This document shows, one piece after another, positions 9,974 to 38,140 of a stretch of DNA of 64,000 nucleotides (its first letter is position 1; every line of letters begins with the position of its first letter). The position numbers and the translations under genes are program-made. The notes beneath the pieces are model-generated. The model saw only the letters and a program-made list of their open reading frames with translations. It had not been told where the DNA came from and made no database searches. Source of the DNA: Nitrosopumilus sp. (lineage in GTDB: Archaea; Thermoproteota; Nitrososphaeria; Nitrososphaerales; Nitrosopumilaceae); NCBI GenBank assembly GCA_965205425.1, contig CBDBGZ010000009.1, positions 416,001 to 480,000 of the forward strand. The letters are read 5' to 3'.

Positions 9974-10054
9974 CTATCTTCTCTTCAAATAACTTGACAA
10001 TATTTCATCTGCCATCTCAGTAACTTCTACATCTTTCTTCATAGCCAAACTATG
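9974..10054 (-). pseudogene. 3' remnant of a small gene cut by the adjacent IS
   Basis: Open frame HSLAMKKDVEVTEMADEILSSYLKRR* runs up to the IS terminus at 10055. Confidence 0.35.
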
Positions 10055-11198
10055 TGAGACTTGGGCATAATTATTTACAAAAATAACTCTCAGTCATTTC
10101 CTAACAGCAAAGCATTCTCTTTACAGTTCTTGGATTTTCTGCTCCAATTATACAGTTGTAATATACTACAAGTTGATACACCAACACACAAACCAATACA
10201 AATGATTTCACGTTGTCAAATCCTTTCACATGTACAGTTCTAATGTTGAACGTATCTTTGAATATTTCAAATAAAGGTTCAATTGAGATTTTTCTTTGTG
10301 AGTACAACTCTTGACCTTGTACAGAATTATAAAAATCTGCAAGTTTGATTCGCTCTGGCGGTGTTGATGGATATATTTTGATAGGACAAATCAATCTCAA
10401 ATGTCTCTCATCACTAAACTGATATAATTTGGAATCATCATATGCTGGATCACATAAAATATTTTCAACCAGTCCTGCAAGTGGTTTGACTAACGTTTCA
10501 TACATTTTACCATCAGAAACATTTGCAGTTGAAACATCAGCAGACAATGGAACTATCAGTTTTCCAGTACTGCAACTCATGTGCAGTTTGTATCCAAATA
10601 TCCAACCCTTTGATTTTGAAAAACCCCATTTTGCATCAGTATCAATTCCTGGGATTGGTAGACGATTGTTCTTTATGTCTGATTTGTGCCATACTGGACC
10701 ATCTGCTTTTAGCATTGAACTATCCCCTGATGCTGAAACATTTTCCACCAATCCCTCTGAGATGAATTTGTTGCCCATGGTACTAATCATGTCACTAATG
10801 GGTAGAAATTGAAATCGTCTGTCAATAGTTCTTCTGTCTGGAATTTGAGTTAATTTGCAAACCTTGAGCAGTTTGTCATTGGAAGGTTTGATTGAAAGGA
10901 AATAATGAAATGTGTTGTTGCTTGGTATTCTCATCCACAACTTTATGATGAACAATTGCACCATCTGGATGGTTGGATACACGTATGGTCTACCCGATCT
11001 GAATACTTCCTCATACAAAGACAACATTCCCACCAAATGTAACACGCCAATAAGAAATGATTCCGATAGAATCTTGCCTAGGGATTTTCATTTGTTTTGA
11101 CATTCCAATGAACGAAACATGATAAGATCCTTAGCTTTTTCTATTTGAATAATTTGAGAATTGACTCAAAAATTAGAATTAGTTATGCCCATGTCTCA
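10055..11198 (-). mobile_element. IS4/IS5-superfamily insertion sequence (DDE transposase 10101-11045)
   Basis: 16-bp TIRs TGAGACTTGGGCATAA / TTATGCCCATGTCTCA (1 mismatch); DSS, GYKLH, DPAYDD and RKISIEPLF motifs; probable frameshift near the 5' end; no target duplication seen. Confidence 0.85.
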
Positions 11199-11288
11199 AT
11201 TAAATAGTAATTTCTCATAATTATTGTACAAACTTTGGTGTTTGTCTGTTTGTCTTGTGGTATGCCTTTGTATATCATAATAAAACAG

Positions 11289-11325
11289 GTTCTAGGTTCT
11301 GAGGTTTCCGCAACCAACCTAGAAC
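11289..11325 (+). other. Hairpin (10-bp stem, 17-nt loop) whose loop is complementary to the neighbouring tRNA
   Basis: GTTCTAGGTT-ctgaggtttccgcaacc-AACCTAGAAC. Confidence 0.7.
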
Positions 11326-11357
11326 ATTTTTATTAATTTTATAGTTTTACAAGTTCT

Positions 11358-11421
11358 GCAGAGATAGCCTAGCTTGGTTATGGCGTTTACCTCAGGAGTA
11401 AATGGTTGCGGAACTACGGAG
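11358..11421 (+). pseudogene. 5' portion of tRNA-Leu(CAG); T-arm and acceptor 3' strand deleted
   Basis: GCAGAGA TA GCC-TAGCTTGGTTAT-GGC G TTTAC-CTCAGGA-GTAAA, variable arm GGTT-GCGG-AACT, then joins IS630 sequence at GGAG. Confidence 0.75.
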
Positions 11422-11717
11422 ATTGTTCTTGGCCTACCAACTTCTTGGGTGGTCGTAGAGGCCATCTATCTCAAAACGACTCACCCATTTTCTCACCCAG
11501 CTTGTGCAGTGGTGTAATGTCTTTGCAGTGCACTGTATGTCCTTTCCATCCTTTAGAATCCTCAACACTGCAAGCATCCTTACTGCAACCTTGGAGTTTT
11601 CTTTTTTGTATGCTGCTTCAAGTGATTCTAACTTGTTCATCAAATTTTACCATACATAGTGATCAAAAAGTTTTTTGTTTTGGAATAATTTAGTTCATGA
11701 ACTTTATCTTTTCGCTA
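11418..11717 (-). mobile_element. IS630-family element A, 5' fragment
   Basis: Near-identical to 24007-24306; ends in TIR ...TTTTCGCTA followed by TA. Confidence 0.9.
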
Positions 11718-11719
11718 TA

Positions 11720-12719
11720 CCAGTATAATTGCAAGAACTGCTCTGATAGTTTCAAGACAGATGGAAATCTTCCACCATGTGGATGCTTTGATTCCTCTGC
11801 AATACGTGAGGTAGTCTCATTATTCTCAAAGAGAATGCCATACGATACCATTAGAGTAACTCTTCAAGAAAGATATGGATTGAAAATTAGTTGCACTACA
11901 GTACAATCTATTCTTCGCACTGGCAGTATTATGTTAGAACCATTGTACCATGACATTAGTAGTGAAATTGTGACTGAAAAGATTCTTGGAATGGATGAGA
12001 CAACATTTCCAATTGACGGAAAGACTGGATGGATGTGGGTTGCAAGAAGCAAAACAGAAGCTCATTACACTTTAGAGTACAGTAGAGGTGCTAAAATCCT
12101 AAAGAGATGTTGGAAGAAATTCTCAGGGATTTTAATATCTGATGGATATGCTCCATACAGAACGGTATTTTGTGATAATGTAAAACAGAGATGCACTGCA
12201 CATCTGCAGCGTGATGCAAAACATCTTGCAAGAAAATCAAATGATAAACAGGCTAAAACCATTTATGGAAAACTCTCAAAACTATTGCATCGTGCAAGAC
12301 GGTATAGCATACAAGAACATTCAGAGAAACAACGTAAAAGATATGCGTTGAATTTACTAAAACAAACAGATTCTATAATATGTCAATACATGTCAGGTGA
12401 TAAAGAAATGATTCAGTTTGGTACGAAACTAAAGACTGCAAGAAATAGTCTGGTTACATTTGTGAAATATCCCTGTATTCCATCAACTAACAATGATGCT
12501 GAGAATTCTATTCGAAAGTGCATCATGCAGAGAAATGTTCGCGGACAGATGAAAAGCAATCAGGGAATGAAGATGCTTTCTATATTTTTAACATGCTTTG
12601 AAACATGGAGGATAAGGGAATTGAATATGTTTTCTGAGATGGCAAAATACATCTAAAGTGCTTGATACATACAAATGAATATCCTATAAAATCTGTTATT
12701 TTGGTAATTCTGATATTAC
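11720..12719 (+). mobile_element. IS66-family element, 5'-truncated (transposase ends at 12656)
   Basis: MDETT, WMWV, SDGY, QRCTAHLQR and TNNDAENSIR motifs; likely right end ...ATATTAC at 12719; left part replaced by IS630 fragment. Confidence 0.85.
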
Positions 12720-13645: not shown

Positions 13646-14226
13646 CTGTCCTTGATACAAACGCTTGTCTTTTCTATTCGATTAATCATAGCGTAACAAA
13701 ATCAGGAAGAAAAATTCCTATAAAATTAAAGAATTCTGAACCTGTAAATCACTATCTTACACCAAAAATTTCAGAGAATTCAATTTATGTCATAGAAACT
13801 GTTAATCGAGAAACTACAGGAAAAATTTGGGATGAACTATCAAAAATTGGTTCTAGTCTTTCATTTCAAGCATCAACAATCCACAAATTGGTTCAGTTAT
13901 CTTCTTCAAATTTTAACAAATTAACTCAAAATCAAATCCATCCTGATGATCTATCTCTTCTTTCTGATGTCAAAAACATGTATGCAACAATTTGGAGTGA
14001 CACTGGAAAAAATGAAAAAAAGAAAAAATGGGCACAAATAAAAAAAACTACCATAGATAAAGGTCCTCCAAGTGGACCTGATCTAGATATTTTAGCAACA
14101 ACTGCAAAATTGGCGCAAGATGAAATTGTAGAATTACTAACGTTTGACAATGATTTTATTTTATTTGCAGATGAAATATTGAGCGAATTTGGAATTTCCA
14201 TCAAAAATGGATGGTTACTAGAATGA
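13600..14226 (+). CDS. PIN-domain (VapC-like) nuclease; start codon uncertain
   Basis: Frame of the 13888 ORF is open back to TGA 13594-96 and contains VLDTN (13648), ETVNRE, DLDILA and LTFDNDF; no ATG/GTG/TTG before VLDTN. Confidence 0.7.
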   Translation: MTSVSSTGSNRTSILTVLDTNACLFYSINHSVTKSGRKIPIKLKNSEPVNHYLTPKISENSIYVIETVNRETTGKIWDELSKIGSSLSFQASTIHKLVQLSSSNFNKLTQNQIHPDDLSLLSDVKNMYATIWSDTGKNEKKKKWAQIKKTTIDKGPPSGPDLDILATTAKLAQDEIVELLTFDNDFILFADEILSEFGISIKNGWLLE

Positions 14227-23223: not shown

Positions 23224-24306
23224 TAGCGACGATCAAAAGTTCGCAAACATCTTTGCAGGATTTCTAAAGATATAATTTGCAACATCAAGCTTGAATTTTG
23301 TCACTCTGAAATATTTTGACACTGCCTTGTTCATTATTGTAAACATTGCATAATACTCTGAAACCAACAATGCATATTTGCTTATCTTCCAGCACTGCTC
23401 TATCATGTTCAAGTATGGTGATCCCTTTGGCAACCAGATTAGTTTGACATCTCTATTGTTTGCAAGGTATTCCTTTACCTTCTTTGATTTGTGAACTGAT
23501 GCTCTATCCAGCATGATTGCAATTTTGCCGTATTTCCAGTGTAACTCTTTTAGATATTCTACAAATGTTACAGCATTGAATTTGTCATAAACTCTAAACA
23601 GTTGATTGCCATTTTCTGTAATTGTACCATACACTGCCAGACTCTCATGTCGTCCTGTATATGGAAGAAATATTCTCTTGGCAACTGGTGACCAGTACTT
23701 TTTTCCTGTTTTTGTATCCCTTACAAAGAATGCTTCATCAGCCATTGCAATGACAAATCCTTTCTTTTTTAGGCGTGAAATTCTCTTTTTGATGCGTTGT
23801 TGCCAGCTTCTCACAGCAGATATACTTGCATGGTTGATGTGATATTTTTGTGCAGTTTTTGCAGACATGCCGTATTGGTGCATTATCTTTCTGATGTGGG
23901 TTATGTGAAATTTTACTCCAGTGGAATAAAAGATACTTTGTTGCAACATTATGGGGGTAAACAAAGTTAGCATTGCTTTTGACATGATAGCATCCATTCG
24001 AGTCTGGGAGATTGTTCTTGGCCTGCCACTTCTTGGGTGGTCGTAGAGGCCATCTATCTCAAAACGACTCGTCCATTTTCTCACCCAGCTTGTGCAGTGG
24101 TGTAATGTCTTTGCAGTGCACTGTATGTCCTTTCCATCCTTTAGAATCATCAACACTGCAAGCATCCTTACTGCAACCTTGGAGTTTTCTTTTTTGTATG
24201 CTGCTTTCAAGTGATTCTAACTTGTTCATCAAATTTTACCATACATAGTGATCAAAAAGTTTTTTGTTTTGGAATAATTTAGTTCACGAACTTTATCTTT
24301 TCGCTA
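23224..24306 (-). mobile_element. IS630-family element A copy 2 (transposase 23233-24210)
   Basis: TIRs TAGCGACGATCAAAAGTTC / TAGCGAAAAGATAAAGTTC; TA duplication; ADEA, LDRASVH and SPYLNMIE motifs; extra T near 24205 uncouples the native ATG. Confidence 0.92.
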
Positions 24307-24584
24307 TAAAAGACAGCTTTTTGAACTTATTTTGTTTTTGTATGTATTTAGCAAGTATTGTTGATTTTTCTCAAAAATGGACTCAGTTGATATGATTTGC
24401 CCTTCTTGAATTTCATAGAATATTTTTTTAGTTTATCTGGTATGGTTTTATCCATTATTTTTGACATTACGATGTAATCAAATGCAGGTTTTACCATGAG
24501 ATACAATGTTTATTATAGTAAATAAATAACGTGAAAAATACTTATCAAAAGACCATTTAATGGAAAAATATAGTATTTAACAAG

Positions 24585-37074: not shown

Positions 37075-37092
37075 CAGCAACTAAACCACATA

Positions 37093-37984
37093 TAGCGAAA
37101 AGATAAAGTTCGTGAACTAAATTATTCCAAAACAAAAAACTTTTTGATCACTATGTATGGTAAAATTTGATGAACAAGTTAGAATCACTTGAAGCAGCAT
37201 ACAAAAAAGAAAACTCCAAGGTTGCAGCAAGGATGCTTGCAGTGTTGATGATTCTAAAGGATGGAAAGGACATACAGTGCACTGCAAAGACATTACACCA
37301 CTGCACAAGCTGGGTGAGAAAATGGGTGAGTCGTTTTGAGATAGATGGCCTCTACGATCTCCCAAGAAGTGTAGGCCAAGAACAATCTCCCAGACCAGAA
37401 TGGATTGTATCATGTCAAAAGCAATGCTAACTTTGTTTACTCCCATAATGTTGCAACAAAGTATCTTTTATTCCACTGGAGTAAAATTTCACATAACCCA
37501 CATCAGAAAGATAATGCACCAATACGGCAAGAGAATATTTCTTCCATATACAGGACGACATGAGAGTCTGGTAGTGTATGGTACAATTACAGAAAATGGT
37601 AATCAACTATTCAGAGTTTATAACAAATTCAATGCTGTAACATTTGTAGAATATCTAAAAGAGTTACACTGGAAATACGGCAAAATTGCAATCATTTTAG
37701 ATAGAGCATCAGTTCACAAATCAAAGAAGGTAAAGGAATACCTTGCAAACAATAGAGATGTCAAACTAATCTGGTTGCCAAAGGGATCACCATACTTGAA
37801 CATGATAGAGCAGTGCTGGAAGATAAGCAAATATGCATTGTTGGTTTCAGAGTATTATGCAATGTTTGCAATAATGAACAAGGCAGTGTCCGAATATTTC
37901 AGAGTGACAAAATTCAAGCTTGATGTTGCAAATTATATCTTTAGAAATCCTGCAAAGATGTTTGCGAACTTTTGATCGTCGCTA
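37093..37984 (+). mobile_element. IS630-family element A copy 3 (frameshifted, internal deletion of about 190 bp)
   Basis: Same TIRs and TA duplication as 23224-24306; QYG joined directly to KRIF. Confidence 0.9.
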
Positions 37985-38048: not shown

Positions 38049-38069
38049 ACAAAATCCATAATAACAATG

Positions 38070-38140
38070 TGGACCCGTTGGGAGTTGAACCCAAATCTCC
38101 TAGTTCTTACTTAGGTGCGTGACCGTCACGCTACGAGCCC
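38070..38140 (-). tRNA. Atypical tRNA-like gene (Ala-type acceptor, AAG anticodon)
   Basis: GGGCTCG TA GCGT-GACGGTC-ACGC A CCTAA-GTAAGAA-CTAGG AGAT TTGGG-TTCAACT-CCCAA CGGGTCC A; 71-nt cloverleaf. Confidence 0.75.

Follow-up and report, generated by a model that had tools for sequence, protein, structure and literature searches.

Hairpins with Loops Complementary to the Anticodon and Variable Arms of Neighboring Class II tRNAs in Nitrosopumilus and Its Relatives

Introduction

Dedicated RNAs that recognize a single tRNA by base pairing are, to our knowledge, rare, and the classic case is the T-box, which is bacterial. A T-box leader reads a specific tRNA through pairing with its anticodon; it contacts the anticodon and the 3′ end of the folded tRNA, and it controls a downstream mRNA. 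Here, we describe a locus in a 64,000-nucleotide (nt) stretch of DNA from the archaeon Nitrosopumilus sp. (GenBank assembly GCA_965205425.1, contig CBDBGZ010000009.1, positions 416,001–480,000 of the forward strand; this whole stretch is called the window), in which a hairpin stands upstream of a class II tRNA gene and carries a loop that is antisense to two parts of that tRNA, its anticodon arm and its variable arm. The unit of hairpin, T run, and tRNA is referred to as a module. Like a T-box leader, the hairpin would address its tRNA through the anticodon. In contrast to a T-box, its pairing would invade the stems of the tRNA, and the gene downstream is the tRNA itself.

Other antisense systems share parts of this arrangement. 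The c4 RNA of phages P1 and P7 and the CI RNA of P4 also use short single-stranded segments that pair with two nearby complements in a mobile element. However, they belong to another domain of life and block translation of a downstream gene, with a target that overlaps its translation start, whereas the partner here is a complete tRNA without a reading frame and the targets lie in the tRNA body. In the ColE1 RNA I/RNA II and R1 CopA/CopT pairs, the hairpin apex mirrors the target stem–loop, as it does in the window. Those partners are opposite strands of the same DNA, whereas the antisense copy of the module is a cassette of two permuted blocks that lies apart, on the tRNA strand and upstream of the gene.

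RNA antitoxins such as hok/sok, ToxI, and CreT/CreA resemble the modules as proposed here, in that a small cognate RNA would neutralize a harmful neighbor, and the available text of one source also describes CreT as an archaeal RNA that is toxic through tRNA supply (PMC8501985). Both are patchy in distribution, occur in multiple copies in mobile DNA, and have specificity segments that diverge quickly while the cognate match is kept. Unlike those systems, the modules have no toxin open reading frame (ORF), CRISPR repeats, or Cascade, and the proposed harmful partner would be a tRNA.

The tRNA itself also has relatives in build. tRNAs whose build and anticodon do not match are on record from bacteria (allo-tRNAs, another family) and from people; no report of natural tRNAs of this kind from archaea was found in the literature searched. 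According to the allo-tRNA paper, which offers the closest published parallel found, bacterial tRNAs of serine identity with UAU, Leu, or Arg anticodons are active in translation and are found near toxin–antitoxin genes and transposons; the authors propose that they serve as missense suppressors, as regulatory RNAs, or as both (Mukai et al. 2017, PMC5389517). The module tRNAs share with them the long variable arm, the serine-type identity, anticodons for AUA (UAU), Leu, or Arg, and the proximity to transposon genes. However, allo-tRNAs come from bacteria, and their acceptor/T stems are of the 8/4 or 9/3 kind, whereas the module tRNAs are archaeal and have the canonical 7/5 arrangement, none of those checked having a 12-bp acceptor branch of the 8/4 or 9/3 type. 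The upstream antisense hairpin is a feature of the modules; the words "hairpin" and "antisense" are absent from the main text of the allo-tRNA paper (PMC5389517).

A partial tRNA gene in DNA rich in mobile elements also recalls attachment (att) site fragments. As described in the available text of a survey of thaumarchaeal mobile elements, these border an integrated element at both ends as repeats in direct orientation, which in nearly all cases derive from the 3′ part of the tRNA (PMC6563490). In the window, the 5′ part is kept, and the repeats are inverted and internal to the tRNA (nt 30–36 and 44–54), with their complements 90 bp away in the hairpin loop; neither a second direct copy in the genome nor, among eight flanking ORFs scanned, an integrase accompanies them. 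Our literature searches returned no account of a tRNA gene preceded by an antisense hairpin, and none appears in the available text of that survey (PMC6563490) or of the allo-tRNA paper (PMC5389517).

Results

The hairpin in the window is a perfect 10-bp stem at 11289–11325 with a 17-nt loop made of two blocks, A′ and B′, which stand in permuted order relative to their tRNA targets (Table 1). This much had been claimed in the original prediction, made from the letters of the window alone, and direct reading of the sequence confirms it, together with the complementarity of the loop to the anticodon region (CTGAGGT/ACCTCAG) and to the variable arm. The target of block A′ begins with the two final bases of the anticodon-stem 5′ strand and continues through C32 and U33 to the end of the anticodon CAG. 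Block B′ covers the 5′ strand and the loop of the variable arm from nucleotide 44, and its last base (11316) is the first base of the hairpin 3′ arm; a repeat search of the window returned block B′ and its target as an 11-nt inverted repeat of 100% identity. The contact had been predicted as one between loops. Both loops would indeed be paired, but so would the 5′ strand of each of the two stems.

Both the fold and the match exceed what shuffling produces. The hairpin folds with −15.5 kcal/mol (z = −4.1), and none of 200 shuffled sequences folds equally well. The two-block score of the loop against its own tRNA is 18, which none of 200,000 loop shuffles reaches (maximum 17), and the loop scores at most 11 with any other of the 60 tRNA sequences compared from the genome of the window (G000; related genomes of the same family, such as G322 and G287, are numbered likewise). 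Among 200,000 random 19-mers from contig C9, six score 18–19, probably because they come from this locus itself. An inner GGUU/AACC helix in the hairpin mirrors the variable arm of the tRNA, such that the apex GGUU-UCCGC-AACC is the mirror image of GGUU-GCGG-AA, the usual layout for what would be loop–loop nucleation. The hairpin end and the tRNA start are separated by 32 nt, which comprise a T5 run and an AT-rich spacer. This T5 run sits where TATA boxes precede the normal tRNA genes of G000, and could be either the TATA box of the tRNA or the oligo-T terminator of a hairpin RNA.

Sixteen modules of hairpin, T run, and class II tRNA were found in 11 genomes of this family of ammonia-oxidizing archaea, 10 of the genus and one of another genus. 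They were collected by BLAST and simple patterns over 151 genomes of the genus and 251–401 of the family, and the count is a lower bound because these searches are crude. BLAST of the window stretch over 401 family genomes led to G322, G287, and G041. A G287 tRNA gave matches in 14 of the 151 genus genomes, with modules in six of those, and the other inspected matches were ordinary tRNA-Ser(UGA) genes without the hairpin. A pattern combining promoter and D arm, applied to the same 151 genomes, added five modules, and one further module came to light next to a G000 transposase gene. A pattern of 31 nt failed to match G322 owing to a 1-nt indel in the D loop, and a pattern of the hairpin stem over the 401 family genomes matched only G000 and G322. 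In public genome, viral, and metagenome contigs, exact 17–18-mers of the tRNA 5′ part matched only unrelated tRNAs or sequences by chance; the promoter-plus-D-arm pattern had five matches in viral contigs, all by chance, and loci L217–L219 were likewise rejected as chance pattern matches.

The layout of the modules is largely constant. In 14 of the 16, the hairpin lies on the tRNA strand and ends 11–41 nt upstream of the tRNA; in 13 of these 14, a T5 run follows the hairpin, and the spacing is 29–41 nt in 13 of 14, the remaining one being G041 with 11 nt. Hairpin stems vary among modules yet always pair. G287 holds four different modules, and G000 has a second, intact one with an 87-nt class II tRNA of anticodon CCU (C9:356124–356210) and the hairpin CCTTATC[ACTCCCGCAGGGC]GATAAGG. 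ARAGORN finds all 15 related module tRNAs, including that of G322 (locus L003, 1543–1628), which is closest to the window tRNA, has a T arm, and carries the anticodon UGU. Its 3′ acceptor strand CCCCAGC cannot pair with GCAGAGA, and this tRNA is probably damaged or chimeric as well. The two modules outside the common layout are G177 and G264. In G177, the hairpin read on the opposite strand is followed by a T6 run, and a TATA-like box lies between hairpin and tRNA, a layout such as would be expected if an antisense RNA were transcribed divergently. The sense copy of G264 makes up one of the two arms of a hairpin.

The match between loop and tRNA is specific to each module. With hairpins chosen by structure alone, every one of the 14 same-strand loops has its cognate at the top of the 14 tRNAs when Watson–Crick blocks are summed (cognate scores 8–21; non-cognate mean 3.8, maximum 13), and 12 of the 14 do so by RNAduplex energy. 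The same tRNA positions are used throughout. Positions 48–52 lie inside a cognate stretch of at least 6 nt in 16/16 modules, positions 44–55 are covered in 7–16 of 16, and positions 28–33 in 7–9 of 16, whereas non-cognate pairs would lead one to expect fewer than 1.2 modules. None of 37 other class-II-length tRNAs, normal Ser and Leu tRNAs among them, has an upstream hairpin-loop complement of 8 nt or more, compared to eight of nine same-strand modules in the same run, and the normal Leu and Ser genes of G000 have no such upstream hairpin.

Loop and tRNA also change together in the homologues, a covariation on which the original prediction had staked its case. G287a has TGATTTCACC in the tRNA and GGTGAAATCA in the loop, where G430 has TGATTTTACC and GGTAAAATCA; similarly, CACAAG/CTTGTG in G322 corresponds to CGCAAG/CTTGCG in G371a. 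The window, G322, and G371a have the acceptor, the D arm, and the hairpin stem in common, and their anticodon arms, variable arms, and loops are unrelated. The scaffold therefore appears to be fixed and the pairing segments swappable. The anticodon stems are kept paired through double changes (TTTAC/GTAAA in the window, TTTGA/TCAAA in G371a), so that both the cloverleaf and the hairpin pairing are kept, and the cloverleaf too would be under selection. Several of these stems contain a mismatch or G·U pairs. In the aligned blocks, a symmetric score counts 243 Watson–Crick pairs, five of G·U type, and two of A·C type, both A·C cases lying outside the two canonical blocks; this balance leans towards RNA pairing on the strand of the tRNA. 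G·T pairs inside stems (G375, G287c) were left out of this question of strand, the hairpin finder having permitted G·T and not A·C.

All module tRNAs are of class II length, with a long variable arm. In 14 of the 16 modules, the first 27 nt, comprising the acceptor and the D arm, are closest to host tRNA-Ser; for the window, the best match is host tRNA-Ser(UGA) with a score of 12, compared to 2–6 for Leu tRNAs. Read by eye, G73 is present in 14 of 15 intact module tRNAs (G264 is ambiguous), whereas host Leu tRNAs carry A73, which takes part in recognition by archaeal leucyl-tRNA synthetase. Those checked by eye (e.g., G371a, G422, and G041) have a 7-bp acceptor and 5-bp T stems. The anticodons are UAA (six modules), UAU (three), CAA, CAG, CCU, UCU, CUU, AUC, and UGU. 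A serine-type body would thus be joined to a non-serine anticodon, and we infer that the module tRNAs are serine-type tRNAs with anticodons for Leu, Ile, Arg, Lys, Asp, or Thr. The window tRNA, which had been called tRNA-Leu(CAG), does have a Leu anticodon, but the name would apply to the anticodon alone: the body is serine-like, and its relatives have G73 and a Ser-type D arm. Under archaeal identity rules, such tRNAs would be charged with serine, and seryl-tRNA synthetase does not read the anticodon; the module tRNAs would therefore probably miscode, placing serine at other codons.

The window copy itself is incomplete. Its acceptor 5′ strand is GCAGAGA, its D arm GCC-TAGCTTGGTTAT-GGC, and its anticodon arm TTTAC-CTCAGGA-GTAAA, with a 7-nt loop and the anticodon CAG at 11393–11395; the variable arm begins at 11403, and the T arm and the 3′ acceptor strand are missing, leaving no complete cloverleaf. 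ARAGORN and Rfam at its gathering threshold miss this gene. In E-value mode, the Rfam tRNA model (RF00005) matches 11358–11434 with 27.0 bits against a cutoff of 29 (E = 0.001), and only the 5′ two-thirds of this match are convincing. The 64-nt tRNA part is single-copy in G000, where no second copy was found, and a search of that genome for a matching 3′ half (T loop plus TCTCTGC) returned only the two tRNA-Ser(UGA) genes, which rules out a split or permuted tRNA or a non-canonical intron. We also discarded a box C/D guide, since no C or D boxes are seen by eye, and an H/ACA guide, as the block order is opposite to that of an H/ACA pocket by reasoning alone.

The break had been attributed to a deletion linked to an insertion sequence (IS), and this proved correct. 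The repeat that follows the tRNA starts at 11421, and the nine other copies printed extend further upstream with conserved sequence that is lost in the window; the deletion therefore fused tRNA position ~60 to a site within an IS630-type element. At full length this element measures 927 bp (four copies aligned), of which the last ~300 bp are left, and G000 has 15 near-full copies of it. A 286-nt contig of public run X1 crosses the junction (11176–11461) without differences; the contigs of runs X1 and X4 agree with the window DNA only. Lacking its T arm and 3′ end, the window module appears to be a dead remnant, and the perfect 18-nt match still present suggests that the deletion is recent.

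An intact IS630-type transposase of 325 amino acids (aa), with Pfam DDE_3 and a helix-turn-helix (HTH), is encoded by a copy at window 23233–24210. Besides the fragment at the module, the element is seen in the window at 23233–24308 (this copy) and 37091–37387, and miniature inverted-repeat transposable elements with its ends (GTATAGCGA...TCGCTATAC) lie at C9:~283050–283200 and C2:~14050–14190. The IS4/IS5-type element upstream of the module has its transposase ORF at 10101–11045 on the minus strand (Pfam DDE_Tnp_1, E = 8.7e-17), a terminal inverted repeat at 10056–10077/11176–11197, and 15 near-full copies in G000. A homologous IS4/IS5-type element lies, inverted, on the same side of the module in G322, and two copies of this type flank the G322 module. 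The IS66-family fragment has an 89% identical copy on contig C8. No integrase was found among eight flanking ORFs scanned, and no ORF of at least 50 aa starts within 11289–11420 on the plus strand, except a 95-aa frame (11406–11693) that enters the IS fragment.

Table 1. Coordinates of the hairpin, its tRNA, and other features (window positions unless a genome, contig, or locus is named)
Feature	Location	Strand	Remarks
Hairpin 5′ arm GTTCTAGGTT	11289–11298	+	10/10 pairs with 3′ arm
Hairpin loop CTGAGGTTTCCGCAACC	11299–11315	+	17 nt, two blocks
Loop block A′ CTGAGGT	11299–11305	+	Antisense to tRNA nt 30–36
Loop block B′ TTCCGCAACCA	11306–11316	+	Antisense to tRNA nt 44–54
Hairpin 3′ arm AACCTAGAAC	11316–11325	+	Pairs with 5′ arm
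T5 run TTTTTATTAA	11327–11336	+	Just 3′ of hairpin, 22–31 nt upstream of tRNA 5′ end
Truncated class II tRNA gene	11358–11420	+	Acceptor 5′ strand, D arm, anticodon arm, variable arm
Target of block A′, ACCTCAG	11389–11395	+	tRNA nt 30–36
Target of block B′, TGGTTGCGGAA	11403–11413	+	tRNA nt 44–54
Deletion junction, tRNA/IS630-type fragment	11417–11421		Ambiguous by 2–3 nt, GGA in both partners
IS630-type fragment	11421–11720	−	Last ~300 of 927 bp; ~627 bp deleted
Transposase HTH part in IS630-type fragment	ORF 11434–11643	−	Pfam HTH_23
IS with IS4/IS5-type transposase	10048–11205	−	Marks upstream edge of module, outside it
IS66-family transposase fragment	11697–12656	+	319 aa; Pfam DDE_Tnp_IS66, E = 3.1e-44
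Second G000 module and transposase	G000:C9:355019–356290 (locus L134, 1520–2790)		
Repeat motifs upstream of SWIM-DDE genes	L135 1380–1500, L136 1380–1500, L137 2610–2700		
Oversized odd-anticodon tRNAs (three GAA, CAC, ACC)	G000 C8:120792–120883, C9:254931–255020, C9:901280–901368, C7:71771–71866, C9:1042184–1042268		
tRNA-Gly(CCC) copies, G328:C1	Loci L196, L201, L205, L207, L209		

The surroundings of the modules were compared at 12 loci, namely those with flanks of at least 1.4 kb. A transposase of ~370 aa with Pfam DDE_Tnp_IS240/rve and a SWIM-like zinc finger motif, read by eye (SWIM-DDE), lies within 1.5 kb of six of the 12, always with its C-terminal end towards the module. The mobile-element setting that had been supposed is thus supported, both by this neighbor and by the IS-rich surroundings. 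In G000b, G287b, and G371a, the transposase gene lies beyond the tRNA on the opposite strand, and in G000b and G287b it ends with a stop codon that adjoins the 3′ end of the tRNA. In G422 and, as a fragment, in G177, transposase gene, hairpin, and tRNA follow in this order on one strand. No transposase of that family was found in the ~1.5-kb flanks of the window, G322, G287a, G430, G373, and G041. Nor is any other protein common to the 12 loci; they share no protein toxin gene, as would be seen in a type I or type III toxin–antitoxin system, and no recombinase is common to all modules.

The SWIM-DDE family occurs in 103 of 251 family genomes, and only one of 30 fetched loci has a module tRNA. 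Homology between the copies ends at the ORF ends, and no terminal repeats were found on them. From the single locus in 30 and the extent of the homology, it follows that this transposase is often found next to the module without being one of its constant parts, and perhaps favors it as a target; the module as fixed cargo of a SWIM-DDE transposon was rejected given that proportion and the lack of terminal repeats. The modules are patchy in their spread, share no other protein, and, where the window was compared with G287 and G041, show no synteny, all of which points to a location in mobile or rapidly lost DNA. Each of the SWIM-DDE genes is preceded by a short repeat of its own, such as six copies of ATAACCT in G000, CTACCTATA in G013, and TATGCC/GGCATA in G244, and a three-copy relative of the transposase in G000 is part of a larger repeat.

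The window gene is dispensable to the host, whose normal Leu set is complete without it. A separate host tRNA-Leu(CAG), the presence of which had been marked as a point to check, does exist at G000 C7:61137–61222; it is GC-rich, quite different in sequence, and carries A73. G000 also encodes tRNA-Leu with UAG, GAG, and CAA anticodons, and tRNA-Leu(UAA) at C9:1127100–1127323 on the minus strand. The latter, the normal tRNA-Leu(UAA) of the genus, is interrupted twice, by an intron in the D-arm region and by another that follows position 37. Because of these introns, the gene escaped ARAGORN, the Rfam tRNA model, and a regular expression alike; an apparent lack of tRNA-Leu(UAA) in G000 was therefore wrong.

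Other odd tRNAs were seen in these genomes. G000 has oversized tRNAs with the anticodons GAA (three genes), CAC, and ACC, none with a matched upstream hairpin; the GAA genes at C8:120792 and C9:901280 carry a G after the acceptor stem, as read by eye. ARAGORN reports a 72-nt tRNA-Leu(AAG) of class I length in two copies (window 38069–38140 and G000 C4:165846–165917; Rfam 47 bits), in which build and anticodon disagree. On contig C1 of G328, a 52-nt pattern match consisting of the promoter region and the first 21 nt of tRNA-Gly(CCC) is identical at five places, and the 110 nt upstream are near-identical in both printed copies (L196 and L209); this tRNA seems to ride on a repeat.

Discussion

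The comparative evidence for a specific and so far undescribed RNA–RNA contact appears strong. As to its role, we tentatively propose that the hairpin is an antisense RNA element that would trap the neighboring, probably miscoding, tRNA. The hairpin would be transcribed on the tRNA strand, as a small RNA ending at the T run or within the leader, and its loop would pair with the tRNA encoded ~30 nt downstream, at both the anticodon arm and the variable arm. Pairing would nucleate at the anticodon loop and the variable loop and then invade the 5′ strands of both stems, so that it would compete with the cloverleaf in a mutually exclusive manner. It would remove the variable arm, needed for charging, and the anticodon, needed for decoding, and would likely hold the tRNA unfolded and unusable. 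In IS-rich DNA, the pair may behave as an antidote and a harmful RNA, with the hypervariable pairing segments preventing cross-talk among paralogous modules. An extension of this proposal, which we consider doubtful, is an all-RNA poison-and-antidote module, in which the poison would be a serine-accepting tRNA and the antidote its cognate two-block hairpin RNA. Such a tRNA, with a Leu, Ile, or Arg anticodon, would insert serine at the commonest codons of an AT-rich host, and modules made private by their hypervariable segments could coexist in one genome, as the four in G287 do.

Several observations weigh against this antisense proposal. No promoter was identified for the hairpin, and the T run sits at the expected TATA position of the tRNA, with a spacing of 29–41 nt in 13 of 14, such that the hairpin may lie outside the tRNA transcript; the 11-nt spacing of G041 fits neither a TATA box nor a terminator cleanly. 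The permuted blocks have no spacer between them in the window and in G422, so that simultaneous full pairing of both looks sterically strained, by reasoning alone, and the pairing must in any case open up two stems of a tRNA that is already folded. Only about nine of the 16 modules attain 6 nt of Watson–Crick pairing in block A, which is short or absent in several, two of the 16 (G177 and G264) have same-sense copies in the upstream element, and the count of G·U versus A·C pairs is small. By the exact two-block measure, the second G000 loop scores 13 (8 + 5 nt) with the 5′ end of host tRNA-Leu(UAG) and 10 with the tRNA of its module, which nevertheless provides its longest uninterrupted match. 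Serine charging and toxicity of the module tRNAs are predictions, and the truncated window copy cannot show function.

The hairpin could instead help the tRNA. As part of the 5′ leader of the pre-tRNA, it would act in cis on a tRNA that is AT-rich and folds weakly, pairing co-transcriptionally and steering folding, RNase P processing, or modification before being removed. Both blocks target 5′ strands, which are made first; the hairpin lies on the same strand 11–41 nt upstream in 14 of the 16 modules, the 11 nt of G041 leave no room for a promoter between hairpin and tRNA, and mismatches or G·U pairs occur in several anticodon stems. We nevertheless consider this role unlikely. A T5 run, which is an archaeal termination signal, separates hairpin from tRNA in 13 of 14, and its location at the normal TATA position implies that the tRNA transcript would start downstream of the hairpin. 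Two modules have sense copies, and the normal class II tRNAs examined in these genomes need no such leader. A role at the level of DNA, with hairpin and inverted repeats as recombination or transposition signals, is in our view quite unlikely. They might be promoter-proximal inversion sites or a folded end read by the SWIM-finger DDE transposase, and the complementarity would be kept because both repeats must stay identical as DNA. The transposase near six of 12 modules, with its C-terminus facing them and abutting the tRNA in G000b and G287b, would suit this, as would the occurrence of the upstream element in both orientations and of the modules in unrelated, IS-rich contexts. However, the tRNA is present at only one of 30 transposase loci, homology ends at the ORFs, terminal repeats were not found there, and the modules have no recombinase in common. 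In addition, differences of G·U type are tolerated, which would be mismatches as DNA, and anticodon stems and cloverleaves are maintained as in an expressed tRNA.

A very unlikely role is that of the tRNA-like RNA as the regulator. Since tRNAs are natural substrates of RNase P, it could be released in the manner of c4 or CI, and the hairpin loop would be its target in the 3′ or 5′ untranslated region of a neighboring transcript, for example a transposase mRNA. The gene order in G422, and in G177 with its fragment, could place the hairpin in the 3′ untranslated region of the transposase. Against this, six of the modules (window, G322, G287a, G430, G373, and G041) have no such transposase in their ~1.5-kb flanks, and in G000b, G287b, and G371a it is placed past the tRNA, in the opposite orientation. 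The originally predicted control of element genes thus has no visible foothold: no start codon, reading frame, or ribosome-binding site is found at either partner, and the gene next to the hairpin is that of the tRNA. In keeping the full cloverleaf, the T loop, and the discriminator, the tRNAs also exceed the needs of a mere antisense RNA. That the match has no function at all, being the scrambled relic of a partial inverted tRNA duplication or a chance match, is hardly tenable. The window copy, a dead gene amid IS debris, would suit this, but no loop shuffle in 200,000 reaches the observed score, 16 differing modules keep the match at the same tRNA positions, and compensatory changes are present, so that the comparative data already contradict it.

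Conclusions

What emerges is an archaeal tRNA gene family in which each gene has its own matched antisense hairpin and the match is rewritten in every module. If the hairpin controls these tRNAs, it would offer a handle on how cells or mobile elements restrain dangerous tRNAs, and on what purpose such tRNAs serve, be it addiction, defense, or recoding. A short, programmable pairing code, with a fixed scaffold and swappable segments, would also serve to switch engineered tRNAs on or off. The poison-and-antidote module, if true, would be the first system resembling a toxin–antitoxin pair in which a tRNA is the toxin.

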